The translations under genes and the position numbers were made by a program. A DNA stretch of 32,462 nt from an uncultured Spirochaetia bacterium. Its GTDB lineage: Bacteria; Oederibacteriota; PGYV01; CAYGHG01. Shown here piece after piece: positions 6,336-29,739 of the stretch; within the stretch, counting starts at the first letter, position 1; the number at the start of each line of letters is the position of its first letter. The DNA lies in NCBI GenBank assembly GCA_964349515.1, contig CAYGHG010000017.1:1-32462 (forward strand), written 5' to 3'. Under the pieces are notes generated by a model, which made no database searches, was not told where the DNA came from, and saw only the letters and a list, made by a program, of their open reading frames with translations.

Positions 6336-6398
6336 ATGAAGTTTAAAAATTAAAAGCTTAAAATTTACGGATTAGTGTAAATTAAAGCATATAAAGAA

Positions 6399-6426
6399 AA
6401 AGGCCCGTAAAGCGGGCTTTTTTCTT
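6399..6426 (+). terminator. Rho-independent terminator after the SPFH gene.
   Basis: GC stem GCCCG / CGGGC (6403-6407 / 6412-6416) with a 4-nt loop, followed by TTTTTTCTTT. Confidence 0.6.
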
Positions 6427-6440
6427 TATGGGAGGTTTTA

Positions 6441-8365: not shown

Positions 8366-8417
8366 TTGACTTAGTGCGCGGCTGTCTGATAATATATTAC
8401 TGTTCGGTAATATATTA
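8366..8417 (+). promoter_or_regulatory. arsR promoter (TTGACT, 18-nt spacer, TAATAT) with an overlapping perfect palindromic operator TAATATATTAC-TGTTCG-GTAATATATTA.
   Basis: 11-bp perfect inverted arms (8390-8400 / 8407-8417) overlap the -10 region just upstream of arsR. This is a typical ArsR/SmtB autoregulatory site. Confidence 0.5.
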
Positions 8418-8429
8418 AAGAGGTGGTAT

Positions 8430-8726
8430 ATGTCAGATGAATTGAAAGTTTTTAAGGCTTTAGGAGATAAGACAAGGCTGAAGATCATGAGAATGCTTCT
8501 GTCCGCCGGTGAGGTATGTGTATGTAAAATAATGTCATCGCTAAAACTCAATCAGGCTGCCGTGTCAAAAGCCCTTGGCGTGCTGAAAAGGGCCGGGCTT
8601 GTAAAAAAAAGGCGGGACGGCAGGTGGATGCATTACAGCATCGTACGGGGCGGCGGCCTTGCCTCAAAAGTCTGCGGGCTCATTGAAGCTGATAAAAAAT
8701 CAAAAAATAAGATGAGGTGTATGTGA
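8430..8726 (+). CDS. arsR: ArsR/SmtB-family metalloregulator with the canonical As(III)-binding CVC motif.
   Basis: wHTH with ELCVCDL-type site GEVCVCKIM and recognition helix [17 protein letters not shown]. It is the first gene of an arsR-acr3-arsC operon. Confidence 0.9.
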
Positions 8727-9790
8727 TGGAAAGAAGGCTTTCATTTGTTGACAGGTATCTTACTCTCTGGATTTTTCTGGCTATCGGCGCGGGAATACTG
8801 CTGGGCTTTTATGTCCCGCAGATATCAGAATCTATAAATTTGATGCAGATAGGCTCAACTTCGGTGCCTATTGCCATAGGCCTTATTCTCATGATGTACC
8901 CGCCTCTCGCAAAAGTAAAGTATGAAAAAATGGGGGAGGTTTTTCACAACAAAAAACTTCTCATATTCTCGCTGATACAAAACTGGATAGTGGGGCCTTT
9001 TGTGATGTTCGGTCTGGCGGTGTTATTCCTGCGCGATTACCCCGAATACATGGTCGGAGTCATACTGGTGGGTCTTGCGCGCTGTATCGCCATGGTAATT
9101 GTATGGAACGACCTGGCGCAGGGCGACAGGGAGCTCGGCGTGGGGCTGGTTGCTTTTAATGCAATAGCGCAGGTGTTATTTTATGCAGTGTATATCTGGT
9201 TCTTTGTTTCATTTCTTTTAAACGCGCTCGGCCTTGCAGAAGGAATGAATGTGCATATTTCAATATGGGAATCGGCAAAAATTGTTTTAGTATATCTGGG
9301 AATTCCGTTCGCGGCCGGCACTGTGACAAGGTACTCGCTTATGAAAGCAAAGGGCGCCGAATGGTATGAAAAGGTTTTTATACCAAAAATCAGCCCGATT
9401 ACACTCATTGCCCTGCTTTTCACGATAGTAGTAATGTTTTCTCTCAAGGGCGAGTACATAGTCAGGAAACCGCTTGATGTTTTGATTGTTGCCGTTCCGA
9501 TGATTTTTTATTTCCTGATAATGTGGTTCGGAACTTTCTTTATCGCAAAGGCTTTGGGTGCCGGGTATAAGCAGACGGTAACGGTGGCTTTTACCGCCGC
9601 AGGCAATGATTTTGAACTTGCGATAGCGGTTGCCATAGCAATTTTTGGCATAGCCTCTCATCAGGCTTTCGCGACCGTAATAGGCCCGCTTGTAGAGGTG
9701 CCGATTCTCGTACTTCTTGTAAATGCGGCTTTTGCGATGAAAAAACTATTCAAGGAAAATCAACCGCAGGTTAACCAAAAATTAACATAG
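8726..9790 (+). CDS. acr3: ACR3-family arsenite efflux carrier.
   Basis: About ten TM helices. The N-terminal region [25 protein letters not shown] is typical of the ACR3/ArsB(ACR3) family. The ATG overlaps the arsR stop (TGATG), with RBS GAGGTG 7 nt upstream. Confidence 0.88.
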
Positions 9791-9823
9791 GCCTGTTATG
9801 ATTTATAAAAACGGAGGTGAAGT

Positions 9824-10243
9824 ATGAATAAGGTGCTTTTTGTATGTATTCACAACAGCGCTCGCAGCCAGATGGCAGAGGCGTATCTAAACAAATTTGG
9901 AGAGGGAAAAGCAACTGCCGAGAGCGCGGGGCTTGAACCTGGAAATCTGAACCCGCTTGTCGTTAAGGTGATGGCAGAAGACGGAATAGACATATCAGGA
10001 AATAAAACCAAGAGTGTCTTTGATTTCTTCAAAGAAGGCAGGCTCTTCTCGCACGTTGTAGCGGTTTGCGACGCCGAAGCTGCAGAACGCTGCCCTATAT
10101 TCCCCGGAACAGGCAAAAAACTTCACTGGCCTTTTAAGGACCCGTCAAAAGCCGAAGGGACGGAAGAAGAAAAACTCGTTCAGATACGGGCGATAAGGGA
10201 TGAAATCAGGGAAAAGGTAAAAGAGTTTCTGGCAACGCTGTAA
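9824..10243 (+). CDS. arsC: Arsenate reductase, thioredoxin-coupled LMW-PTP type.
   Basis: N-terminal P-loop VLFVCIHNSARSQMAEA (CX5R(S/T) with catalytic Cys) plus downstream Cys residues (VCDAEAAERC), as in B. subtilis-type ArsC. RBS GGAGGTG. Confidence 0.9.
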   Translation: MNKVLFVCIHNSARSQMAEAYLNKFGEGKATAESAGLEPGNLNPLVVKVMAEDGIDISGNKTKSVFDFFKEGRLFSHVVAVCDAEAAERCPIFPGTGKKLHWPFKDPSKAEGTEEEKLVQIRAIRDEIREKVKEFLATL

Positions 10244-10247
10244 GTTA

Positions 10248-11354
10248 TTACAGCCCGCCGCTTTCAAGGGCTTTCAGGTTCTTTTTTATTTCTTCTTCAA
10301 GCGCGGGCGGCAGCCCGAATAGTTTTACATCCATAAAACCGCTGACTATGGAAGATATTGCCTCTGATTTTGTGAGGCCGCGGGCCATAAGGTAGAGTAT
10401 CTGGTCTTCATCGAGTTTTCCTATGGCCGCTTCGTGGGACATGTTGACATCTTTGAACCTTGTTTCAAGCTCGGGGATGGCGGAAATCAACCCTGTATCT
10501 TTCAGCATCAATCCGTCGCATTCCAGATGAGCATATACACCGGGGGCGTTGCCTTCAAGTTTTCCGCGCGCTATAACGTCTCCTCCGCTTGAAACCGTGC
10601 GGCTTATTATCTCCGCGCGGCTTCCTTCGCCGTTTAGCCTTACCCGCGCGCCCAGGTCATAAACCGAGCCTTCCGGCGCGAGCACGAGGGAGTTAAATTT
10701 AGCGACGGCGTTTTTGCCTAAATCCGCGACAGGATACATCTGCGTGATTTTTGTTTCACGCAGGGCTATGTAGTTTGAAATGTAAGTGCCGTTTTCCTCA
10801 ACTTTTATCGCAGAGCGCGGCCTTACTTCCATGTTTTTTGACCAGTCGTGTATCATGGTGTACATTAACGTCGCTCCCTTATCTACGAACATCTCTGTGA
10901 CGCCGATGTGAGAGCCATCGCCGAGATGTGATGAAGAAGCACAGCCGTTTATGATGTGAAGGGAAGACCCTTCTTCTAAAAAAATCATGTTATGGACTTT
11001 TTGTCTGAATTTGTCCTGTTTAATGAAAAAACAGGCCTGAAAAGGCATGTATGCTTTTACGCCTTTGCTTACTTTTATGAAGTATCCCGACTGGGTGTCT
11101 TTAAATGCGTCTTTTGTATATTCGTCCTTTTCAGGGCTGACAAGTGTCCACATCTTTTCTTTTACCCTGGGGTATTTCTCAACAGCTTTCTGCAGGGAAA
11201 GCATCTCCACGCCCTCCTGCCTCATGGAAACGTGGGTCACGCCGCTGTCGGTCATCATAAATGAACCTGCGCGGTTGTTTTCGTCGAGGTTTATTCCGGC
11301 GCGTTCTATTTTTTCCTTATCTTTTGGATCGACTGTTATTTCGTGTCCCGGCAT
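10248..11354 (-). CDS. sufB: Fe-S cluster assembly scaffold protein of the SufB/SufD family.
   Basis: About 368 aa with a beta-helix-type SufBD C-terminal region. It lies immediately downstream of sufC and overlaps it by 19 nt. The ATG with a GGGAG RBS is preferred to the upstream GTG. Confidence 0.8.
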   Translation of the reverse strand: MPGHEITVDPKDKEKIERAGINLDENNRAGSFMMTDSGVTHVSMRQEGVEMLSLQKAVEKYPRVKEKMWTLVSPEKDEYTKDAFKDTQSGYFIKVSKGVKAYMPFQACFFIKQDKFRQKVHNMIFLEEGSSLHIINGCASSSHLGDGSHIGVTEMFVDKGATLMYTMIHDWSKNMEVRPRSAIKVEENGTYISNYIALRETKITQMYPVADLGKNAVAKFNSLVLAPEGSVYDLGARVRLNGEGSRAEIISRTVSSGGDVIARGKLEGNAPGVYAHLECDGLMLKDTGLISAIPELETRFKDVNMSHEAAIGKLDEDQILYLMARGLTKSEAISSIVSGFMDVKLFGLPPALEEEIKKNLKALESGGL

Positions 11355-12076
11355 GCCGCACACTCCCTGAATCCGTTTTTCTGAATATCTTCAAAAAGCC
11401 TTTTTGCATCGTGCCTGCATTTTATCTTTCCGTCAAGCAGGGTATAACCATAGTCCGCGTCCACATAGTCAAGGATGTAGCCTGTGTGCGTAATTATTAA
11501 TGATGATTTTATTCTTTTTTCTTTATCCAGGTCGCGGCCGAGCAGCTGCCTGATTTTTGAGCCGATGAGCTTCATATTTTCTATGTCAACACCCGACTCG
11601 GGTTCGTCAAACATAACAAATGAGGGTTTCTGGGCAAATAACTGAAGCAGCTCGGAGCGCTTTATCTCGCCGCCGGAAAAACCCTGGTTTATGTCCCGTT
11701 CCATTAGATACCCGAGGTTAAGCGCCTTTGCGGCGACAGAAGGGTCCATGTTTACGTTGTTTTTTGTTTTGATCAGGTCAGCCATGCCTGAGAGTTTAAT
11801 TCCCTTGATGGAGGGCGGCCTCTGGAAATACATGCCGATACCCAGCCTCGCGCGCTCGTCAACCGGCATTGTATCAATTCTGCGTCCGTTGAATTCTATT
11901 GAACCTGATTTGATTTTATACTGGGGATACCCCATGATTGCCATCAGCAGGGAAGTCTTGCCCGAGCCGTTTGGCCCGAAAAGTATGTGTGTCTCGCCGT
12001 CGGGTATTGAGAGTTCGATGCCGTTTAGTATTTCTTTGCCAAAAACATCCACGTGAAGGCCTTTTACTTCAAACAT
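11336..12076 (-). CDS. sufC: Fe-S cluster assembly ATPase SufC.
   Basis: Walker A GPNGSGKTSL, Q-loop, ABC signature LSGGEIKR and Walker B FVMFDEPESGVD. It has the typical SufC length with no TM domain. Start at MFEVKG with an AAGGAG RBS. Confidence 0.9.
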   Translation of the reverse strand: MFEVKGLHVDVFGKEILNGIELSIPDGETHILFGPNGSGKTSLLMAIMGYPQYKIKSGSIEFNGRRIDTMPVDERARLGIGMYFQRPPSIKGIKLSGMADLIKTKNNVNMDPSVAAKALNLGYLMERDINQGFSGGEIKRSELLQLFAQKPSFVMFDEPESGVDIENMKLIGSKIRQLLGRDLDKEKRIKSSLIITHTGYILDYVDADYGYTLLDGKIKCRHDAKRLFEDIQKNGFRECAACRDTK

Positions 12077-12193
12077 TATCAGCTCCTTTTTTATTTGTGA
12101 CAATATATCATATTATCAGGTCAAAAAAACAGTAAAAATATTTGACAGTGTAATGCGGGTATACTAACATAGGTGAATAAGGAGCGTGAAGAG

Positions 12194-13135
12194 ATGAACT
12201 ATAAATACAAATATTCAGGGCTTTTTTTGAGTGCGGCGGTTTTTATAATATTCTTCAGTGCCGTATCGGTATATGCTGGCGGCGGGCCCGAACCGGTGAT
12301 TTTACAGCACGGCATGCAGGCGCCGGAGGCCGCAGCGCAGGGCCAAAAAAGTGAAGCCCCGGTGATAAAACCCGTGGCTGAAAAATACAGGCATCTTCTT
12401 GCTGAAATATCCGACATCAGAAACATTCCCGTAATTCACCTGGATGAAGCAAAAGCCCTGCTTGAAAGCGGCGAAGCTGTGTTCATAGACGCAAGGTCAA
12501 GGCAGGAGTATAATGCCTCGCATATACCGGGCTCGGAGTATATAGGAGCGGGGGATGCCCGCTATCGCATACCGTATCTTCGCGAAAAACTTGAGGGAAA
12601 GGTGCTGGTGCCTTACTGCCACGGCACGGCGTGCAGGCTCTCTGACAAGGTGGCGCAGAGTCTTTTTGACGCGGGCTACAGAAGGCTTGTAATTTTTAAC
12701 GGCGGATGGCCTGAATGGACACAGGCTTTTATGCCGGTTGAAAAGTATAATCCGCCTGAAACATACAGGTTCCTTGACGAGCCTGCGCCTTCAATAGCCT
12801 CAATAAGAAAAGTCAGCATTGAGCAGGCGCGGTATATTTTTGATAATGCACTGGCGCATTTTATGGATGCGGATGCAGAGGCAAAGTTTCATGATTTCAG
12901 GGTTCAGAATGCATACTCCATACCGCCCGAACGTTTCGACGAGAAAATGAGGGCTTATAACGGCATCTTTTTGAACGGCCCGGTTATTATATACGGCAGG
13001 GATATGTTCGGAATGAGGGCCTCTGAAGCGGCAAAAAGGCTGTATAGCGCGGGTTACAAGAGGGTGTTTTTAATGAAGGGGAGCCTTTCAAAGTGGGAAA
13101 AAGCGGGGCATCCGGTTTTTAAAAAAGCAAAGTAA
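12194..13135 (+). CDS. Exported/membrane-anchored tandem rhodanese-domain protein. Domain 1 has active-site loop CHGTACR (CX5R); domain 2 has no Cys.
   Basis: N-terminal hydrophobic anchor/signal. First rhodanese domain: FIDARSRQEY...VLVPYCHGTACRLSDKVAQ...GGWPEW. The second domain is degenerate. ATG at 12194 is preceded by AAGGAG. The track's 12173 start is a GTG inside the RBS. Confidence 0.8.
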   Translation: MNYKYKYSGLFLSAAVFIIFFSAVSVYAGGGPEPVILQHGMQAPEAAAQGQKSEAPVIKPVAEKYRHLLAEISDIRNIPVIHLDEAKALLESGEAVFIDARSRQEYNASHIPGSEYIGAGDARYRIPYLREKLEGKVLVPYCHGTACRLSDKVAQSLFDAGYRRLVIFNGGWPEWTQAFMPVEKYNPPETYRFLDEPAPSIASIRKVSIEQARYIFDNALAHFMDADAEAKFHDFRVQNAYSIPPERFDEKMRAYNGIFLNGPVIIYGRDMFGMRASEAAKRLYSAGYKRVFLMKGSLSKWEKAGHPVFKKAK

Positions 13136-13158
13136 ATCCCTCTATAAAACAATTCTGC

Positions 13159-13206
13159 TTGACTTTCTGATTGCGCCTGCTAATATATGCGTGTTAGCGC
13201 ATATAT
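13159..13206 (+). promoter_or_regulatory. Promoter (TTGACT, 16-nt spacer, TAATAT) with an overlapping palindromic operator ATATATGCG-TGTTAG-CGCATATAT. It lies upstream of the permease operon.
   Basis: 9-bp perfect inverted arms (13183-13191 / 13198-13206) with a 6-nt spacer TGTTAG. It closely resembles the arsR operator at 8390-8417 (TAATATAT outer half-sites, TGTT(C/A)G spacer). Confidence 0.5.
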
Positions 13207-13228
13207 GCATATATTATAGGAGTCTTCA

Positions 13229-14380
13229 ATGAACGATACGAAAAAAGCAATTTACATAATAGCAGGTTTTTTGATTCTGTTTTTCATCCCTTTTGAAAAC
13301 GCCGCCGTACGCGGCGCTGTCATGGAAGCCTTTTACATGGCTCAGGACTACGCCCGCGAGCACGTACTGCTGTGCCTGATACCCGCGTTTTTGATAGCGG
13401 GCGCCATTGCGGTTTTTATCAAGAGCGATTCCGTGCTGAAATACCTGGGGGCCGGCGCTAATAAAATCATTGCTTACGGTGTTGCTGCGGTTTCCGGCAG
13501 CGTGCTGGCTGTTTGTTCCTGTACGGTGCTTCCTCTATTCGCCGGGCTATATAAAAGAGGAGCCGGCATCGGGCCTGCGACAGCTTTTCTGTATGCGGGC
13601 CCTGCGATAAATGTGCTTGCCATAATACTGACCGCAAGAGTGCTGGGGTTTGAGCTCGGGGTGGCAAGGGTAATAGGCGCGGTGGTGTTCTCTATTGTAA
13701 TAGGGCTTCTCATGCAGCTATTTTTTTCAAAAGAAGAAGAGAAGAGGATGGAATCATTTCAGGCTGAAACCGAAAAGGGCAAGCCGGCTTTTAAGCTGGT
13801 TTCCTATTTTTTAGTCATGATTGCACTGCTTGTTTTTCTTAACTGGGGCAAAGACGAGTCCATGCCTGTATGGAACTCAATACATCAGGCCAAGTGGATA
13901 ATCTCGGGGATACTGCTGGCTGTACTTGTTTTTATGTCTGTTTTTTGGTTCGGGAAAGAAGAGCGAAAAGAGTGGTTTGCCGAGTCAGGCGGTTTTGCGC
14001 TGCAGATAATGCCGCTTTTATTTGCAGGGGTGCTGATTGCAGGTTTTCTTCTGGGCAGGCCCGGGCACAGCGGAATAATACCGGCGGAATGGATATCATC
14101 GCTTGTGGGCGGCAACTCAATAAAAGCAAATCTTTTCGCGTCAGTTGCGGGCGCTTTTATGTACTTTGCGACGCTGACGGAGATACCGATACTTCAAGGG
14201 CTGATCGGCTCGGGTATGGGAAAGGGCCCGGCGCTTGCGCTGCTGCTTGCAGGCCCGGCGCTCAGCCTGCCAAACATGCTTGTCATTAACAGTGTGATGG
14301 GTTTTAAAAAGACGGCTGTTTACACAGTGCTTGTAATAGTCATGGCCGCTGTCTCGGGGATGATATACGGAAGTATTTAA
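13229..14380 (+). CDS. DUF318 / ArsP-like permease (COG0701 family, conserved CxC in a TM helix).
   Basis: Polytopic membrane protein with the CSC-containing helix AVCSCTVLPLFAGLYKRGAGIGPATAFLYAGPAINVLAI. Its pairing with a small 'redox-active disulfide protein 2' and an ArsR is the typical genomic context of this family. Confidence 0.8.
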   Translation: MNDTKKAIYIIAGFLILFFIPFENAAVRGAVMEAFYMAQDYAREHVLLCLIPAFLIAGAIAVFIKSDSVLKYLGAGANKIIAYGVAAVSGSVLAVCSCTVLPLFAGLYKRGAGIGPATAFLYAGPAINVLAIILTARVLGFELGVARVIGAVVFSIVIGLLMQLFFSKEEEKRMESFQAETEKGKPAFKLVSYFLVMIALLVFLNWGKDESMPVWNSIHQAKWIISGILLAVLVFMSVFWFGKEERKEWFAESGGFALQIMPLLFAGVLIAGFLLGRPGHSGIIPAEWISSLVGGNSIKANLFASVAGAFMYFATLTEIPILQGLIGSGMGKGPALALLLAGPALSLPNMLVINSVMGFKKTAVYTVLVIVMAAVSGMIYGSI

Positions 14381-14408: not shown

Positions 14409-14837
14409 ATGAGTGATTGCTGCAAAGGAAAGAAAGGCAGTTATGTTTATTCCTGTTCGGGTGCGGCGGATACGGGCTTCATAAGCGACAGGGTTGCGAG
14501 AATGCTCTCTGTTGCCGGGCACGGCAGTATGTACTGTCTCGCGGGGCTGGGAGGCGGTATTGAATCATTTGTAAAATCAGCTTCCGAAGCGGAGAGAAAC
14601 ATAGTTATTGACGGCTGTGCGGTCAAGTGCGGAAAGAAGATAATGGACAGGCATAGTATCTCATGCGAAAGCTATGTAGTCACAGATTTTGGTTTTAAAA
14701 AGGGTGAAACGGGAATGAGCGAAGAACTCGTGAGATATGCTTTTGTGAAAATCAACGAAGCGGTGGAAACAAAAACACCGTCTGAAAACGTCCAATCTTC
14801 AGGGCCCGGCCCGTGCTCTTGCGGGGGTAAGTGCTGA
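14409..14837 (+). CDS. Cys-rich DGC-domain protein (putative metal/metalloid-binding).
   Basis: Conserved IDGCAVKCG (DGC motif). Cys clusters at the N-terminus (MSDCCKG, YSCSG) and C-terminus (GPGPCSCGGKC). RBS AAGGAGG. Confidence 0.65.
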   Translation: MSDCCKGKKGSYVYSCSGAADTGFISDRVARMLSVAGHGSMYCLAGLGGGIESFVKSASEAERNIVIDGCAVKCGKKIMDRHSISCESYVVTDFGFKKGETGMSEELVRYAFVKINEAVETKTPSENVQSSGPGPCSCGGKC

Positions 14838-15226
14838 TGGAGCGCGCCCTTGAAATGTTCGCGGCCCTGTCGGATAAAACCAGGCTCAGGGCATACAGGC
14901 TGCTAATCAGGGCCGGCAGTGATGTTGCTGTATGCGAACTGATTGACGCCCTGCGGGAGTCGCAGTACAACGTGTCAAAACACCTTCAGGTTTTAAAAAA
15001 TGCCGGGCTGGTAAAAGAGGCGAAAAAAGGGCGCTGGTCGCTTTACTCTGCCGTAGAGGGCGCTGACTCGGGAATCGCTCAGGCAGTGCTGAAAATGCGC
15101 GAGGAAGTTTTTGAAGAGGATTACGGGTTTCTTAAAAAAAGGCTTGCTTTGAGGCGCAACGGCGAGATAGTTTCGTGCAAACTCGCGGGAGAACTCATGG
15201 AAAGTTTAAAAGGAGAAAAAAAATGA
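14837..15226 (+). CDS. Second ArsR/SmtB-family regulator, lacking the CVC As(III) site.
   Basis: wHTH LSDKTRLRAYRLLIRAGSDVAVCELIDAL...NVSKHLQVLKNAGLV. The site has a single Cys (AVC) instead of CVC. The ATG overlaps the upstream stop (TGATG). Confidence 0.85.
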   Translation: MERALEMFAALSDKTRLRAYRLLIRAGSDVAVCELIDALRESQYNVSKHLQVLKNAGLVKEAKKGRWSLYSAVEGADSGIAQAVLKMREEVFEEDYGFLKKRLALRRNGEIVSCKLAGELMESLKGEKK

Positions 15227-15456
15227 AAATTTCAGTGTTGGGCACGGGCTGCCAGAAATGCCACAAGCTTGAAGAACTGGCGAGAAAAGTGGTAAGTGAA
15301 AACAATATTAAGGCTGAAGTGGAAAAGGTAAGTGAGATAAAAAAGATAATGGAATTTGGTGTTATGATGACCCCTGCCCTGGCAATTGACGGCAAAGTTG
15401 TTCTTGCCGGAAAAGTGCCTTCGGAACAGGAAATAAAAAAACTGCTCGGAGCATAA
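15223..15456 (+). CDS. Small thioredoxin-fold 'redox-active disulfide protein 2' (CxxC = GCQKC).
   Basis: 77 aa. Start at MKISVLGTGCQKCHKL, preceded by AAAGGAG. The ATGA junction overlaps the ArsR2 stop. This family is characteristically adjacent to DUF318 permeases. Confidence 0.8.
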   Translation: MKISVLGTGCQKCHKLEELARKVVSENNIKAEVEKVSEIKKIMEFGVMMTPALAIDGKVVLAGKVPSEQEIKKLLGA

Positions 15457-15465
15457 GGAGGAAAA

Positions 15466-15945
15466 ATGAAGAGGTTATTAATCGCAGCAGGAGTACTGGC
15501 GGTTGCGGCCGTATTTTTGTTCGCCGGAAGCAAACCCAAAACGCAGGTTTCAGCCGAGCAGTCAAATCAGCCGGGAGCGGTAAGTTTAAACCGGGTTTCA
15601 AAGGAAACTGCGCCAGCTGTAAAGGAAAAAGACGGCGCAAAGAAGAAGTACAAGGTCACTTTTGTGGAGTTGGGCTCTGTACGCTGCATCCCATGTAAGA
15701 TGATGATACCGATAATGGAAGAGGTGGAGAGGCGTTTTGGCGACGAGGTTCTGGTGGTGTTTCATGACGTGTGGACGCAGGAGGGCCAGCCCTACGCGGA
15801 CAAGTATAAAATAAGGGGAATACCCACGCAGGTTTTTCTTGACGCTGACGGCAAGGAATTTTTCAGGCATACAGGTTTTTTTCCAAAAGAAGAACTTTTC
15901 AAGGTGCTTGAAAAGGGCGGGGTAAACATCAATGCCGGCAGCTAA
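15466..15945 (+). CDS. Exported TlpA/MauD-like thioredoxin (CxxC = CIPC).
   Basis: Signal peptide. Thioredoxin fold with VELGSVRCIPCKMMIP active site and the cis-Pro region IRGIPTQVFLDADGKEF. RBS AAGGAGG. Confidence 0.8.
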   Translation: MKRLLIAAGVLAVAAVFLFAGSKPKTQVSAEQSNQPGAVSLNRVSKETAPAVKEKDGAKKKYKVTFVELGSVRCIPCKMMIPIMEEVERRFGDEVLVVFHDVWTQEGQPYADKYKIRGIPTQVFLDADGKEFFRHTGFFPKEELFKVLEKGGVNINAGS

Positions 15946-16420
15946 AAAGAGCAGAAGCCTGAAAAAGGCAGGTAAAAAAAAGCGGCCGGCCCTTCGCAGG
16001 CAGCCTGCGAAAAAAAGAAAGCCGGTAAAAAAAGAAGCTGAAAAAAGGGTTTTTAAGCCGGGGCACGGCATAATCGCCGCAATATTAATAGGGGTTTTGA
16101 TTTTCTCCGCGGTATCGGTTCTATCCGGTGCGGATAAAGAGGTAATAATGATAACCGATTCAAAGGCCTGCAAATGCGTGAAGGTCAGGTGTATTTCGAT
16201 GGAAGAGCAGGTAAGGGAACAGCTTTCAAAAAGCAAAGCAGGGGCAAAGTTCACACTTATAGAGCTCAAAGACGAGAAACGCTCCAAACCGCTTATGGAT
16301 AAATACACCATGGGAATGGTGCCCTGCCTTGTTGTGGTGGACAAAAATGACAGCGTTGTTTACAGCGCGGGTGCATTTAACTTTAACACGGAAGAATTTT
16401 CAGCCGTGCTAAAAAACTGA
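15932..16420 (+). CDS. Membrane-anchored protein with a polybasic N-terminal tail and a thioredoxin-like C-terminal domain carrying an atypical CKC (CxC) motif.
   Basis: N-terminus MPAAKKSRSLKKAGKKKRPALRRQPAKKRKPVKKEAEKR, then one TM helix. Trx-like pattern (VIMITDSKACKCVKV ... MGMVPCLVVVD ... EEFSAVLKN). It overlaps the upstream gene by 14 nt. No RBS is evident. Confidence 0.5.
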   Translation: MPAAKKSRSLKKAGKKKRPALRRQPAKKRKPVKKEAEKRVFKPGHGIIAAILIGVLIFSAVSVLSGADKEVIMITDSKACKCVKVRCISMEEQVREQLSKSKAGAKFTLIELKDEKRSKPLMDKYTMGMVPCLVVVDKNDSVVYSAGAFNFNTEEFSAVLKN

Positions 16421-16431
16421 AAGGATGAGCG

Positions 16432-17148
16432 ATGATTGAACAGATATTTACTTCACTTACTCTTGCGCTTGAAAAGAGCGCGCTTATTGCCGTAGGAGCT
16501 TCTTTCTTATGGGGAATACTCAGCATTGTCTTGAGCCCGTGCCATCTGGCGAGCATACCTCTTATTATAGGGTTTGTGAGCTCACAGGAGGAAAAACTGA
16601 CTGTCCGCAAGGCATTCATAATTTCGCTCTTGTTTTCAGCGGGTATTCTTATTACAATTGCCATTATAGGGCTGATAACGGGGCTGGCTGGCAGGATGCT
16701 CGGAGACCTGGGAATCTGGGGGACGCTCGGAGTATCGGCGGTGTTCTTTGTAATAGGGCTTCATCTGCTCGGACTTTTTGAGCTGCCTTTTATAAGCGGC
16801 GGAATGAACCAGCCGGGGTTTACAAAAAAAGGTTATGTGGCGGCTTTTGTGCTCGGGCTGGTATTCGGGCTTGCTCTCGGGCCGTGTACTTTTGCCTTTA
16901 TGATGCCGATACTTGCGGTTGCTTTCAAACAGGCCGCGGCCAACTGGTTCTATTCATTCACGCTTGTAGCGGCTTACGCCATAGGGCACTGCGGGGTAAT
17001 AGTGCTCGCAGGCACTTTTACGGAGGCTGTTGAGAAATACCTGAAATGGGGCGAGAAGTCAAAGGCTGTAATAATTATTAAAAAAACCTGCGGCGTGCTG
17101 ATATTGGCGGCAGGGGTTTACATGATAGCGGGTATAGTTAAATTTTAA
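16432..17148 (+). CDS. ccdA: CcdA/DsbD-family transmembrane thiol:disulfide electron transporter.
   Basis: Six TM helices with the two conserved membrane Cys residues in IVLSPCHLASIPL and LALGPCTFAFMMPILA. Confidence 0.85.
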   Translation: MIEQIFTSLTLALEKSALIAVGASFLWGILSIVLSPCHLASIPLIIGFVSSQEEKLTVRKAFIISLLFSAGILITIAIIGLITGLAGRMLGDLGIWGTLGVSAVFFVIGLHLLGLFELPFISGGMNQPGFTKKGYVAAFVLGLVFGLALGPCTFAFMMPILAVAFKQAAANWFYSFTLVAAYAIGHCGVIVLAGTFTEAVEKYLKWGEKSKAVIIIKKTCGVLILAAGVYMIAGIVKF

Positions 17149-17159
17149 GGAGGAAAGAC

Positions 17160-18161
17160 ATGAAGAAAAAAAAGGCAGGAAAAAAAGTAAAATCCGCAAA
17201 GACACCAAAAAAGCCCCCCGCAGCCGCTGCTGTTACATGGAAAGACACTCTGACAGGTTCGGTGATAATATGTGCGGTGGCGGCGGCTGTTGCCCTGATG
17301 TACACGGGCACGCGGGTGCTTGCGGGAGTTGACAAGATTGATACGCAAGGCGGCGCGGAAACTTCGGCGTCATCAGAACCTGCGCCCGAGACGCTTAAAA
17401 AAATACCGCTTCCGGCAAAGTTCAGGCATTTGGCAAATAATGTGGCTAAAAAAGAAGACATACCCAAGATACACATAGAAGAGGCAAAGGCGCTTTTTGA
17501 AAGCGGCCGGGCTCTTTTTATCGACGCGAGAAGCGAACAGGAGTATAAGCAGTCCAGGATACCCGGCTCAATTTTCATAAGCGCGGGCGACCAGCCTTCA
17601 AAGATAGAAACATTGGCCGAGAAGCTGAAGGGCAAAGTGCTTGTCCCTTACTGCCACGGCGCGGGCTGCCATTTATCGGACAAAGTCGCCCACAGGCTGC
17701 ATGATATGGGATACAAAAAGGTCGCGATATTTTTCGGAGGCTGGCCGGAATGGACACAGGCGGCAATGCCCATAGAGGAGTACACTCCTCCCGCTGAGTT
17801 TGCGCATCTTTTCAAGGAAACCGGTTCTGTGAGTGAAATCAGGGAGGTCACGCTTGAAGAGGCAAAATTTCTTTATGACAACGGGCTGGGTATTTTTGTG
17901 GATGCGGACTACCGCGAAAAATACAACGAAAAGACCATATCAGGAGCGATATCAATCCCTTATGACAGTGTAAAACAGATATACCCGTCTTACAGAGGTT
18001 ATCTGCTGCAGAAACCGGTTATTGTTTATTGCCATGGCCGCGGAGGGAAATCAAAAAAAGCCGCTGAAGAACTGTATAATGAAGGGATAAAGAAAATTAA
18101 TGTATTTATCAACGCAATACCGCTCTGGGAGCAAAACAGCTACCCTATGATAAAGAGGTAG
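17160..18161 (+). CDS. Membrane-anchored tandem rhodanese-domain protein with a polybasic N-terminal tail (paralog 2; loops CHGAGCH and CHGRGGK).
   Basis: Strong RBS AAGGAGG. N-terminus MKKKKAGKKVKSAKTPKKPP, then a TM helix. Domain 1: FIDARSEQEY...VLVPYCHGAGCHLSDKVAH...GGWPEW. Domain 2: VIVYCHGRGGKS. Confidence 0.8.
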   Translation: MKKKKAGKKVKSAKTPKKPPAAAAVTWKDTLTGSVIICAVAAAVALMYTGTRVLAGVDKIDTQGGAETSASSEPAPETLKKIPLPAKFRHLANNVAKKEDIPKIHIEEAKALFESGRALFIDARSEQEYKQSRIPGSIFISAGDQPSKIETLAEKLKGKVLVPYCHGAGCHLSDKVAHRLHDMGYKKVAIFFGGWPEWTQAAMPIEEYTPPAEFAHLFKETGSVSEIREVTLEEAKFLYDNGLGIFVDADYREKYNEKTISGAISIPYDSVKQIYPSYRGYLLQKPVIVYCHGRGGKSKKAAEELYNEGIKKINVFINAIPLWEQNSYPMIKR

Positions 18162-18167
18162 GTGAAA

Positions 18168-18635
18168 ATGGAAAAAATTAAAGCTGTTTTAAGCAACAAA
18201 TATTTACTCGCGGCGTGCAGGATCTCAATAGGCGCGGTATTTGTACTCGCCAGTGTGGGGAAGATTCTCTTTCCTCATGAATTTGCGAGGGATGTTTACT
18301 CGTATATGCTGATGCCGGCTTTTGTTGTGCCTGCGTTTGCGGCCATACTGCCTTGGATAGAGTTTGCTTCCGGGCTCCTGCTTTTGGCAGACATAAAACC
18401 TAAGAGTTCGGCGGTGCTGGTTATGGGGCTGTTGTTGATGTTTATTGCGGCCATACTCTGGACAGTTGCAAACGGAATAGAGATTTCCTGCGGTTGTTTT
18501 GACATACTGTTTCCCGGGGAGAAAGCAGGCTGGTCAACAATTATCAGGGATGTGGTCATGATGGCAGTTATTGCGCCTGTGATGTTTTTTGACCACAATG
18601 ACGTAAGGATATACGGGCTGATTAATAAAAAATGA
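18168..18635 (+). CDS. MauE/DoxX-like membrane protein with the conserved CGCF motif.
   Basis: Four TM helices. Motif EISCGCFDILFPG is typical of MauE-family proteins, which are often fused or adjacent to rhodanese. ATG at 18168 is preferred (RBS AAGAGGTAGG) to the GTG at 18162. Confidence 0.7.
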   Translation: MEKIKAVLSNKYLLAACRISIGAVFVLASVGKILFPHEFARDVYSYMLMPAFVVPAFAAILPWIEFASGLLLLADIKPKSSAVLVMGLLLMFIAAILWTVANGIEISCGCFDILFPGEKAGWSTIIRDVVMMAVIAPVMFFDHNDVRIYGLINKK

Positions 18636-26979: not shown

Positions 26980-27016
26980 TTGAAAAATAAGATTTCATAT
27001 TATATAATTATAATAT
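26980..27016 (+). promoter_or_regulatory. Promoter (TTGAAA, 17-nt spacer, TATAAT) with an overlapping inverted repeat ATATTATA-TAAT-TATAATAT. It lies upstream of the RHH-PIN pair.
   Basis: -35 at 26980-26985 and -10 at 27003-27008. The 8-bp inverted arms (26997-27004 / 27009-27016) span the -10, as expected for an antitoxin-autoregulated TA promoter. Confidence 0.5.
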
Positions 27017-27038
27017 AAAATCATATAAGGAGGATGCC

Positions 27039-27299
27039 ATGAAAAAGGTAAAGGCATTGTCTGTTACGATACCTAATGAGCTTACCGAAAAGATATACAG
27101 GATAAGTGAAGATGAGATGAAAAGCGTAAGCTCCATTGTAAGCGAAGCTGTGATGACTTACTGCATTAAAAAAGACTTGGAAAAAGTCCGTGCCGAGTTT
27201 TCTGAAAGAGCCCGTAAAATGGGGATAGTGAGCGAAGATGACATAAACAGGGTGATACATGAGTACAGAAAAGAACGTAAAAATAAAAATAACCGTTGA
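27039..27299 (+). CDS. Ribbon-helix-helix (CopG-like) antitoxin, putative.
   Basis: 86 aa with strong RBS AAGGAGG. The N-terminal beta-strand-like KALSVTIPNELTEKI is followed by helices. It lies immediately upstream of, and overlaps, a PIN-domain gene. Confidence 0.6.
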   Translation: MKKVKALSVTIPNELTEKIYRISEDEMKSVSSIVSEAVMTYCIKKDLEKVRAEFSERARKMGIVSEDDINRVIHEYRKERKNKNNR

Positions 27300-27681
27300 T
27301 ACAAACATCCTTATATCCGCTTTTATATACCCGGGTATGACGGTCGTTAAAATATTTGACATGATAATGGACGGCAAGGTGCTGCTGGGCCTGTCAGAGG
27401 ATATTTTAAGGGAGTTCGCCGGCGTTTGTGTCCGCAAATTTGACTATGAACCGGAAGAAGCTATCCGGCATACGGATATTATCAGGCAGAGCTCGGAAAT
27501 CGTAAGGCCGAAAGATAGAGTGAGGATTATCAGGGATGAACCTGATAACAGGATTCTTGAATGCGCGGCGGAGTATGAAGCGGATTATATCGTTTCAGGT
27601 GATAAACACATACTTGATGTAAAAAAATACAGGGGGATTGAAATTCTGACTCCGGCTGAATTTATAAAAAAACTTCCGTGA
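27259..27681 (+). CDS. PIN-domain toxin (TIGR00305-like putative RNase).
   Basis: N-terminal KIKITVDTNILISAFIYPG (first acidic residue of the PIN fold) and C-terminal acidic residues (DYIVSGDKHIL). About 140 aa. It overlaps the antitoxin gene in a different frame. Confidence 0.75.
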   Translation: MSTEKNVKIKITVDTNILISAFIYPGMTVVKIFDMIMDGKVLLGLSEDILREFAGVCVRKFDYEPEEAIRHTDIIRQSSEIVRPKDRVRIIRDEPDNRILECAAEYEADYIVSGDKHILDVKKYRGIEILTPAEFIKKLP

Positions 27682-29063: not shown

Positions 29064-29702
29064 ATGGCAGTAAAGAAAAAGAAAACTGCTAAGAAAAAGA
29101 GTGTAAAAAAAACTGTAAAGCCTGCGCAGGTAAAGCAGCCTGAAAACGCGGGCCCTGACAGCCTGAAACTGATGATGGCAGGCATAGCGGCTGTTGCTGT
29201 GGTGATAATAATGATTATAGCCGCGGCAGCGCTGAAGCCGAAGCCGAGTGCACCGGATTCAAGCGGGATTACCCTTGCAGAATCACAGGAGCAGCCGGAT
29301 ACGGCGGTGGCTGATGAGAATGTAAAGCCTGATTTTAAAAAACTGTTTCAGGAAGTATCTTTAAAGCAGGAAATTCATAAAATAGACATTGACGCGGCAA
29401 AATATCTGTTTGATTCGGGAAGGGCTGTATTTGTGGATTCGCGCAGTAAAGGCGAATACGACAGGCAGAGAATTAAAGGCTCGATTTTTCTTCCTGTAAA
29501 CGCTTCCCAGGATGAAATAGACAGGGCCGCGAAAAAATACCGGGGAAAAGTTCTGGTAACATACTGCCACGGCAGCGGCTGCCACCTGGCTGACAAGGTG
29601 GCTTACAGGCTGTTTGATGCCGGCCATAAAAAACTCGCCATATTTTGGGGAGGCTGGCCAAAGTGGGACGAGCACAAATATCCCGAAACGCTCGGGAATT
29701 AA
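29064..29702 (+). CDS. Membrane-anchored single-domain rhodanese with a polybasic N-terminal tail (paralog 3; loop CHGSGCH).
   Basis: N-terminus MAVKKKKTAKKKSVKKTVKPAQVKQPE, then a TM helix. Rhodanese domain FVDSRSKGEY...VLVTYCHGSGCHLADKVAY...GGWPKW. It starts 6 nt after the GT4 stop. Confidence 0.8.
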   Translation: MAVKKKKTAKKKSVKKTVKPAQVKQPENAGPDSLKLMMAGIAAVAVVIIMIIAAAALKPKPSAPDSSGITLAESQEQPDTAVADENVKPDFKKLFQEVSLKQEIHKIDIDAAKYLFDSGRAVFVDSRSKGEYDRQRIKGSIFLPVNASQDEIDRAAKKYRGKVLVTYCHGSGCHLADKVAYRLFDAGHKKLAIFWGGWPKWDEHKYPETLGN

Positions 29703-29706
29703 AATA

Positions 29707-29739
29707 AAAGCCGCCCCTTTTGGGGCGGCTTTTATTTTA
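29707..29739 (+). terminator. Rho-independent terminator (AAAGCCGCCCC-TTTT-GGGGCGGCTTT followed by TATTTTAT).
   Basis: 11-bp GC-rich stem with a 4-nt loop and a U-rich tail, directly after the rhodanese-3 stop. Confidence 0.75.

Follow-up and report, generated by a model that had tools for sequence, protein, structure and literature searches.

The 32,462-nt stretch analysed here, referred to as the window, comprises positions 1 to 32,462 of contig CAYGHG010000017.1 from an uncultured Spirochaetia bacterium (assembly GCA_964349515.1). It carries two operons, each of which encodes a repressor of the ArsR/SmtB family and has a palindrome on its promoter. Operon 1 has the gene order arsR1, acr3 and arsC-like. 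Operon 2 starts with arsP, followed by a DGC-domain gene, arsR2, an ArsE-like thioredoxin gene, a second thioredoxin gene, a gene for a 162-amino-acid protein and ccdA, and then by rhodanese and MauE-like genes. Homology searches assigned the window to Candidatus Goldiibacteriota. Comparison with related loci indicates that each palindrome is probably the operator of the repressor encoded in the operon that follows, an arrangement of classical autoregulation.

Both regulators are bona fide ArsR/SmtB-family proteins. ArsR1 (98 amino acids; plus strand, 8430-8726) and ArsR2 (129 amino acids, with a C-terminal extension; plus strand, 14837-15226) matched Pfam HTH_5 with E-values of 3.4e-13 and 1.2e-8, and the NCBIfam metalloregulator ArsR/SmtB model NF033788 with 91.3 and 76.1 bits (cutoff 55); alignments placed them in the same family. 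The two proteins are 43% identical. Their recognition helices, QAAVSKAL in ArsR1 and QYNVSKHL in ArsR2 (recognition helix ESQYNVSKHLQVLK), differ at the relevant residues. An AlphaFold2 model of ArsR2 had a predicted local distance difference test (pLDDT) score of 87, and Foldseek aligned about 83 of its 129 residues with CzrA/SmtB (template modelling score, TM-score, of about 0.75 to the target), the closest solved folds. SqrR was one of many generic fold matches. The extension with C114 was without a solved counterpart in the Foldseek matches, and a PDB sequence search with ArsR2 gave generic CzrA/SmtB-level matches only. BigR and SqrR are ArsR-type repressors that sense persulfide or sulfite, with a cysteine pair in alpha-2/alpha-5 that forms a di- or tetrasulfide; the BigR equivalog NF040642 was rejected for both proteins (19.4 bits for ArsR2, 35.6 bits for ArsR1, cutoff 155).

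The promoter of operon 1 has a -35 box TTGACT (plus strand, 8366-8371), of which TTGAC is kept in orthologous promoters, and, after an 18-nt spacer, a -10 box TAATAT (8390-8395); an alternative -10 box, GATAAT (8388-8393), would leave a spacer of 16 nt. The -10 box overlaps the left arm of site 1 (8390-8417, no strand), the predicted ArsR1 operator, a perfect 11-6-11 inverted repeat with the sequence TAATATATTAC-TGTTCG-GTAATATATTA. The promoter of operon 2 has the same two boxes, TTGACT (plus strand, 13159-13164; TTGAC kept in six orthologous promoters) and TAATAT (13181-13186), with a 16-nt spacer. Here, the -10 box abuts and overlaps the first half-site of site 2, the predicted ArsR2 operator, which contains the perfect 9-6-9 inverted repeat ATATATGCG-TGTTAG-CGCATATAT at 13183-13206. 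The coordinates and perfect symmetry of both palindromes, as reported in an initial annotation of this DNA, were exact to the base, and the TTGACT...TAATAT promoters that it saw overlapped at the -10 box were found as described.

Site 2 is larger than its palindrome. It extends over 13183-13214 on the plus strand and consists of three half-sites: h1, ATATGC (13185-13190); h2, GCATAT (13199-13204); and h3, GCATAT (13207-13212). The core is ATATGC-GTGTTAGC-GCATAT. A wider inverted repeat, TAATATATGC/GCATATATTA, spans 13181-13216, so the site is more complex than first described: the palindrome had been delimited correctly, and the third half-site had been overlooked. With 38.0 bits, site 2 was the best match in the window to a weight matrix of the ArsR2-family operator, and no other position in the window reached the shuffle threshold.

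Site 2 is conserved in relatives, among them the syntenic loci L001 (ArsR2 84% identical) and L010 (68% identical). It was almost unchanged in genomes whose ArsR2 is 84%, 68%, 61%, 62% and 57% identical and in which the sequence between the promoter boxes had diverged. Across the orthologous arsP promoters, the conserved parts were the -35 box and the block ATGC(G/A)(T/C)G(T/A)TAGCGCATATA(T/A)GCATAT; the 16-17 nt between the promoter boxes were not conserved. The conserved unit is thus ATATGC-N8-GCATAT plus a further GCATAT. The initial annotation had emphasized AT-rich outer half-sites, TAATATAT. At site 2, this outer sequence is mostly -10 box, and the conserved part is ATATGC/GCATAT with the third half-site. 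The idea that promoter-overlapping operators precede the ArsR-encoding operons agrees with this pattern of conservation.

To follow the element beyond close relatives, an alignment of ArsR2 homologs was used to scan a genome collection, which gave 80 loci from Spirochaetia, WOR-3, Nitrospirota, Thermodesulfobacteriota, Elusimicrobia, Clostridia, Aminicenantes, one euryarchaeote and others. In a motif-free k-mer test of the 150 nt upstream of the regulator gene, ATATGC/GCATAT was among the most enriched 6-mers and occurred in 58 of 82 loci, compared with 80 of 820 background windows. In these upstream regions, the number of perfect 6-nt inverted-repeat arms peaked at a spacer of 8. With the weight matrix, 75 of 83 loci, belonging to many phyla, had a site that scored higher than the best shuffle (16.4 bits). 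Most of these sites scored about 17-46 bits, which puts site 2 of the window among the higher ones. Their orientation was constant, and they lay almost always 28-75 nt upstream of the ArsR2 homolog or, as in the window, upstream of the preceding permease gene. The consensus was TATATGC-N8-GCATAT-AT-G(A/C)ATAT, with a weakly constrained spacer. Among 52 sites defined by h1 and h2 alone, the third half-site was found exactly +8 from h2 in 32; other offsets had 0-5 sites each, and the mirror position upstream had 3. The k-mer, spacer and offset tests were independent of the weight matrix.

The family sites are also tied to the promoter. The hexamer abutting ATGC was most often TAATAT or TATTAT. 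Of 74 distinct sites, 42 had a TTGACA-like -35 box 15-19 nt upstream of it; of 1660 random positions, 43 did. These statistics show that the fusion of the operator with the core promoter is itself conserved. Site 2 of the window has all the features of the operator that goes with the QYNVSxHL helix: three half-sites, a gene-proximal third one and fusion to a -10 box. A literature search with the motif words ATATGC or GCATATATG together with ArsR or arsenic retrieved no relevant publication, and a paper on ArsB of Campylobacter jejuni (PMC3598800) contains no operator sequence.

For site 1, fewer sequences could be compared. ArsR1-type loci, with the helix QAAVSKAL, are rare; 8 were assembled, about 5-6 of them independent. 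The conserved core, 8394-8413, is ATATTA-N8-TAATAT, with CTGTTCGG as the N8. Its left half-site, ATATT(A/G), was present in 8 of 8 ArsR1-type loci. In the window and L001, the partner TAATAT came 8 nt later. The clade of L010, L173, L175 and L176 has a degenerate (T/A)CATAT after 8 nt and a perfect TAATA(T/C) 2 nt further on; its sites therefore have the same h1-N8-h2-N2-h3 layout as site 2. A TGTT(C/A)G spacer had been proposed as the common core of both palindromes. That proposal did not hold up: the spacer of site 1 is TGTTCG in the window, CAAATA in L001 and CAAATG or TATATG in other orthologs, and the spacer of the ArsR2-family operator is under weak constraint.

What the two sites have in common is a layout of two inverted, ATAT-containing 6-nt half-sites placed 8 nt apart on the promoter of the regulator's own operon, ATAT-NN-N8-NN-ATAT. 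A metagenome scan with ArsR1-type proteins added 80 generic CVC-type ArsR loci. When all sets were combined, ATATnn-N8-nnATAT was found within 130 nt upstream in 84 of 165 ArsR loci and in 12 of 1403 background windows. AseR of Bacillus subtilis, according to a review (PMC12607644), is reported to bind TATATAACGATTTGCTTATATA. This operator, ATATAA-N8-TTATAT, has the 6-8-6 geometry with outer ATAT, which gives the layout an experimental anchor. Like the window regulators, AseR is an ArsR/SmtB protein with a cysteine site in helix alpha-3, and it autoregulates an arsenite-efflux operon. Unlike in the window, where site 1 has TA/TA and site 2 has GC/GC, the inner dinucleotides are AA/TT, and a third half-site is not described for AseR. 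AseR, ArsR1 and ArsR2 belong to different subfamilies with different recognition helices.

The inner dinucleotide tracks the residues that follow the invariant glutamine of the recognition helix. QY(N/Q/K) goes with GC, QP(T/R) with TC, QST with CC, QPK with AA and QAA with TA. The mutual information between helix class and dinucleotide was 1.67 bits, a value inflated by sequence relatedness, compared with a maximum of 0.85 in 2000 permutations. The four inner positions of the sites themselves (TA/TA versus GC/GC) were set by the seed pattern, and their information content is not independent evidence. The suggestion that the outer bases are shared and the inner bases discriminate is supported by this family-wide covariation.

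We propose that a repressor dimer would sit on the 6-8-6 element and, since this element overlaps both the -10 hexamer and the likely start of transcription, would keep RNA polymerase out. Binding of an effector to the repressor cysteines would release the repressor, and the operon would be transcribed. ArsR1 would read ATATTA-N8-TAATAT at site 1 and control arsR1-acr3-arsC. ArsR2 would read ATATGC-N8-GCATAT at site 2, with the gene-proximal third GCATAT 2 bp further on, and would control the genes from arsP through the DGC-domain gene, arsR2, both thioredoxin genes and the 162-amino-acid protein gene to ccdA, perhaps with rhodanese and mauE. The inner dinucleotide, TA or GC, would be the main specificity determinant, and for this reason each regulator most likely acts independently of the other. 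The effector of ArsR1 is probably As(III), sensed via C30, C32 and perhaps C97; ArsR2, in which only C33 and C114 are kept, probably senses a thiol-reactive arsenical via a two-thiol site.

Several points weigh against this autoregulatory reading. The predicted binding at both sites rests on the comparison of sequences. Support for site 1 comes from about 5-6 independent sequences, all from Goldbacteria-like genomes, and one clade has its partner half-site shifted by 8 bp. In addition, ATATTA-N8-TAATAT taken alone has a match in an unrelated palindrome, rich in A and T, on a putative toxin-antitoxin promoter (26997-27016), so the pattern is not unique to ars promoters. The ArsR2 matrix was built from 45 of the loci that it scored, which makes the 75 of 83 partly circular. 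Finally, the loci are phylogenetically related, and both the counts and the permutation test overstate their independence.

Four other explanations were weighed. The initial annotation suggested that the two regulators may form a circuit linking the ars operon and the redox cluster. In such a circuit, both ArsRs would bind both sites through the outer ATAT and thus couple the ars and the arsP/redox operons. The sites are indeed alike in their 6-8-6 geometry, their outer ATAT and their position on near-identical promoters, and the two proteins share 43% of their residues. However, site 1 scored -0.6 bits on the ArsR2-family matrix, as opposed to 38.0 bits for site 2. The inner positions also track the recognition helix across subfamilies, which is independent evidence; the two helices differ at the relevant residues; and the supposedly common TGTTNG spacer is not conserved at site 1. 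No evidence of a cross-circuit was found, and we regard such cross-regulation as unlikely.

A second explanation accepts the operators and assigns them to another binder, either an HTH_3 protein encoded upstream of arsP in some relatives, as in L010, where its gene precedes arsP, or a single ArsR acting at both sites. We rate this as very unlikely. The HTH_3 gene is absent from both the window and L001, where the site is nevertheless conserved, and across phyla the motif of site 2 goes with genes of the ArsR2 family, often lying directly upstream of arsR.

Still less probable, in our view, is that the palindromes are chance AT-rich sequence around strong -10 boxes, with no regulatory role. Sequence of the (TA)n type is self-complementary, and ATATTA-N8-TAATAT does recur at an unrelated promoter. 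Against this, the shared pattern ATATAT-N3-TGTTNG-N3-ATATAT had exactly 2 matches in the window, both with 0 mismatches, and still only 2 when 3 mismatches were allowed. Shuffled sequences gave an expectation of 0.06, and 0 of 100 shuffles had 2 matches. The window held 9 perfect inverted repeats whose arms are at least 9 nt long and whose spacers measure 4-8 nt, and shuffles held 1.02, nested repeats being included in both counts. Conservation islands in orthologous promoters and the presence of the motif across phyla also argue against chance. Least credible of all is a role in RNA, with the palindromes acting as leader hairpins on translation or stability instead of as DNA operators: perfect palindromes can form hairpins and the right arm of site 1 pairs weakly with the start-codon region (-3.2 kcal/mol), but the left arms overlap the -10 hexamers and would not be transcribed from these promoters, folding of the predicted leaders was not better than that of shuffles (z = +1.5 and -1.5), the arms keep their sequence with no compensatory variation, and the window had no match to Rfam families.

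The two regulators differ in their cysteines. ArsR1 has the motif GEVCVCKIM and thus the CVC pair of the type 1 As(III) site. C30 and C32 are invariant in a three-sequence alignment, and C97 near the C-terminus is conserved. The third alpha-3 cysteine, equivalent to Cys37 of the R773 ArsR, is absent, and KIMS follows the CVC. ArsR2 has SDVAVCELI; with AVC at this position, the CVC pair is absent. The contrast between CVC and AVC, noted earlier for the two proteins, is a clade-level feature: AVC is present in ArsR2 and 10 relatives, together with a C-terminal (S/A)C (C114 in ArsR2). Most members of the ArsR2 family have CVC and a C-terminal G-x-C, and a third group, from Firmicutes, has SVS. 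In the ArsR2-family alignment, V32-C33-E34 and the helix ESQYNVS(K/R)HL were invariant.

ArsR2 had been suggested to be a possible non-sensing paralog. This is improbable, as C33 is invariant, C114 is present in 11 of 11 aligned AVC-type sequences, and AVC-type clusters hold same-strand ACR3 or ArsC genes. With both cysteines conserved, ArsR2 is probably still a sensor and is best read as arsenic-linked. With AVC plus C114, it is a candidate for a different effector specificity. SpArsR of Shewanella putrefaciens was reportedly found by Chen, Nadar and Rosen in 2017 to be selective for methylarsenite, MAs(III), with its cysteines forming an adjacent C-terminal pair, a two-coordinate site. SpArsR and ArsR2 are alike in that the former has two sensor cysteines and controls an arsP promoter, and the latter has two conserved cysteines and lies in an arsP-led operon. 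They differ in that the cysteines of ArsR2 lie in helix alpha-3 (C33) and in the C-terminal extension (C114). The two proteins are not close relatives, and the analogy is a functional one. An assignment of ArsR2 to the SpArsR type was rejected, since C33 and C114 are not adjacent. By analogy with SpArsR, ArsR2 may have an organoarsenical-selective two-thiol site, or it may be a thiol-redox switch. The hgcAB-associated ArsR-like regulator of P. mercurii was rejected as the family of the window regulators because its cysteine layout differs (Cys47/49/86/88).

More speculatively, and with the odds against it as a whole, the AVC clade could be an uncharacterised type of ArsR sensor. Its C33 and C114 would form a two-thiol site, perhaps selective for trivalent organoarsenicals, methylarsenite for example, or responsive to thiol oxidation and not to inorganic arsenite, which would switch on ArsP efflux together with an extracytoplasmic thiol-reduction module. 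On its operator with three half-sites, two dimers might bind in registers that overlap and are offset by 8 bp.

The genes of both operons, all on the plus strand, fit an arsenic system. In operon 1, acr3 (8726-9790) encodes an arsenite efflux transporter (NCBIfam TIGR00832, 443.7 bits, cutoff 282.8). The arsC-like gene (9824-10243) encodes a low-molecular-weight phosphatase (LMWP) family protein of the thioredoxin-type arsenate reductase family (Pfam LMWPc); with 121 bits on NCBIfam TIGR02691, below the cutoff of 174, the assignment is at family level only. In operon 2, arsP (13229-14380) encodes a cluster 1 permease (Pfam ArsP_1, PF03773, 262 bits). Cluster 1 was defined by a transmembrane C(S/T)C preceded by LAV and an N-terminal Hv(L/I)xClvPAfFIAG (Yang et al. 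2015, PMC4435449), and the translation of arsP carries HVLLCLIPAFLIAG and LAVCSC, in agreement with that description. ArsP of C. jejuni exports trivalent organoarsenicals (PMC6205960).

Between arsP and arsR2 lies the DGC-domain gene (14409-14837; Pfam DGC), syntenic in 6 of 9 AVC-type loci, the product of which has a Cys-rich C-terminus (PCSCGGKC); a metalloid-binding or chaperone role is conceivable. Downstream of arsR2 are genes for a small thioredoxin-like protein of the MTH895/ArsE family (15223-15456; Pfam Thioredoxin_3; NCBIfam TIGR00412, 113 bits, cutoff 62), a TlpA-like thioredoxin-domain protein with an N-terminal hydrophobic segment (15466-15945; Pfam Thioredoxin and Thioredoxin_2), the conserved 162-amino-acid protein (15932-16420; no Pfam or NCBIfam match, syntenic in 6 of 9 AVC-type loci) and a CcdA/DsbD-type transmembrane thiol-disulfide transfer protein (16432-17148; Pfam DsbD_TM). 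An open reading frame for a rhodanese-domain protein (17160-18161) is a probable distal operon gene; it has a tblastn rhodanese match at +2569 and the position of the PF00581 gene in L001. The open reading frame after it (18162-18635) is called a MauE-like membrane protein by synteny only, its L001 counterpart having PF07291 MauE.

Operon 2 had been described as a redox cluster separate from the ars operon. However, the module recurs inside ars gene clusters. ArsR2-family genes were frequently clustered on one strand with genes for ArsP and a small thioredoxin; genes for TlpA-like thioredoxin and CcdA were often part of the cluster, as were those for ACR3 and/or ArsC. AVC-type operons of relatives include ACR3 (L015) or LMWP ArsC (L010, L013). 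From this recurrence, the ArsE name and the ArsP motifs, the most plausible reading of the cluster is that it belongs to an extended arsenic system. ArsP, the ArsE-like thioredoxin, the TlpA-like thioredoxin and CcdA then form a module of arsenic gene clusters and not a separate redox system.

Other known systems resemble the window in part. The R773 ArsR of E. coli is a homodimeric autorepressor of ars with Cys32, Cys34 and Cys37, and the CVC of ArsR1 is at the equivalent position. In contrast to it, ArsR1 is without the third alpha-3 cysteine and has the C-terminal C97, and ArsR2 is without the first cysteine. SmtB and CzrA have 12-2-12 inverted repeats as operators, with half-sites of the TGAA/TTCA type. 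Their sensing sites, for Zn/Co, are in alpha-5, and a cysteine sensor like that of ArsR1 or ArsR2 is absent. SmtB is reported to bind its operator with more than one dimer, a possible parallel to the third half-site of site 2. Site 1 can be written in a similar way as 13-2-13 with one mismatch, TAATATATTACTG-TT-CGGTAATATATTA. For the R773 ArsR, two cysteines are reported to suffice. According to the review cited above (PMC12607644), the R773 operator is located at -64 to -40, upstream of the promoter, while the window sites overlap the -10 box.

The four-gene ars operon of C. jejuni includes arsP and acr3 and has the gene order arsP-arsR-arsC-acr3. ArsP and ArsR are encoded together there, with arsP before arsR, as in the window. 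Unlike in C. jejuni, the genes in the window are split into two operons with two regulators, and the arsP operon has additional DGC, thioredoxin-like, CcdA and rhodanese genes. ArsP handles organic and Acr3 inorganic arsenicals (PMC6205960).

Taken by themselves, the two sites would be ordinary autoregulatory operators with distinct specificities, a matter of routine bacterial regulation. Added to this are a cross-phylum consensus with a third half-site, the rule linking helix and dinucleotide, and the clade-specific cysteine pair of ArsR2. The consensus of the ArsR2 clade, which is widespread in mostly uncultured lineages, helps to annotate ars regulons in metagenome-assembled genomes. The helix/dinucleotide rule, if true, could make it possible to predict or re-engineer ArsR operators and could guide the design of orthogonal arsenic biosensors.

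Some loci from the ArsR2-family scan differed in the placement of the operator. In seven CVC-type loci (L019, L020, L022, L035, L038, L044, L045), the site was at -28 from the arsR start, and its h3, ATGAATATG, contained or abutted the start codon of the regulator. A Shine-Dalgarno sequence was not visible at these loci, and the two features together imply a very short or leaderless transcript that begins inside the operator. The SVS subgroup, in Firmicutes-type loci (L039, L047, L051, L052, L061, L063, L070, L079), had retained this operator motif and often carried two copies of it, one about 70 nt and the other 1.2-2.6 kb upstream of the regulator. The regulators of this subgroup have no alpha-3 cysteine, and the ars/ArsP neighbours tested were mostly absent; the DNA code thus seems to be shared and the effector to be another one.

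Two arrangements concern the ArsR1-type operon of Goldbacteria relatives. In L177 (5726-5803), the ArsR2-type site was missing upstream of arsP, and arsP followed a ferredoxin gene after 25 nt; it may be co-transcribed with the ArsR1-type operon, perhaps a natural fusion of both regulons. In L010 (4404-5857), L173 (4375-5792) and L176 (4377-5767), the ArsR1-type gene heads a series of arsR, acr3, a gene for a CdhD-domain membrane protein and one for a small ferredoxin; the window has arsC in that place instead. The CdhD-domain protein carries the HgcA cap-helix motif NVWC(A/S)AGK, and its gene and the ferredoxin gene look like an hgcA/hgcB-like pair under a putative ArsR1-type operator.

Three genes lie between the two operons of the window (10248-13135). 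Two of them, on the minus strand (10248-12103), are SufBD-like and SufC-like and correspond by synteny with L001 to SUFBD_core and ABC_tran. The third, on the plus strand (12173-13135), encodes a two-domain rhodanese and has a promoter-like site of its own, TTGACA/TAACAT (12142-12170); this upstream rhodanese gene is absent from L001.

The second match to ATATTA-N8-TAATAT in the window, at 26997-27016, was rejected as an ArsR1 target. It is a perfect match at the centre of an AT-rich 18-4-18 inverted repeat (26987-27026, 89% complementarity), apparently by coincidence. The repeat lies on the promoter of a gene for 86 amino acids (27039-27299), which overlaps one for 140 amino acids (27259-27681); by eye, the products look like a ribbon-helix-helix (RHH)-type antitoxin and a PIN-like toxin. 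GC-cored hairpins flanked by A-runs and T-runs are present at 29700-29739 and 6391-6429, with the pairs TAAAATAAAAGCCGCCCC/GGGGCGGCTTTTATTTTA (18-4-18, perfect) and ATAAAGAAAAAGGCCCG/CGGGCTTTTTTCTTTAT. Both look like bidirectional intrinsic terminators.

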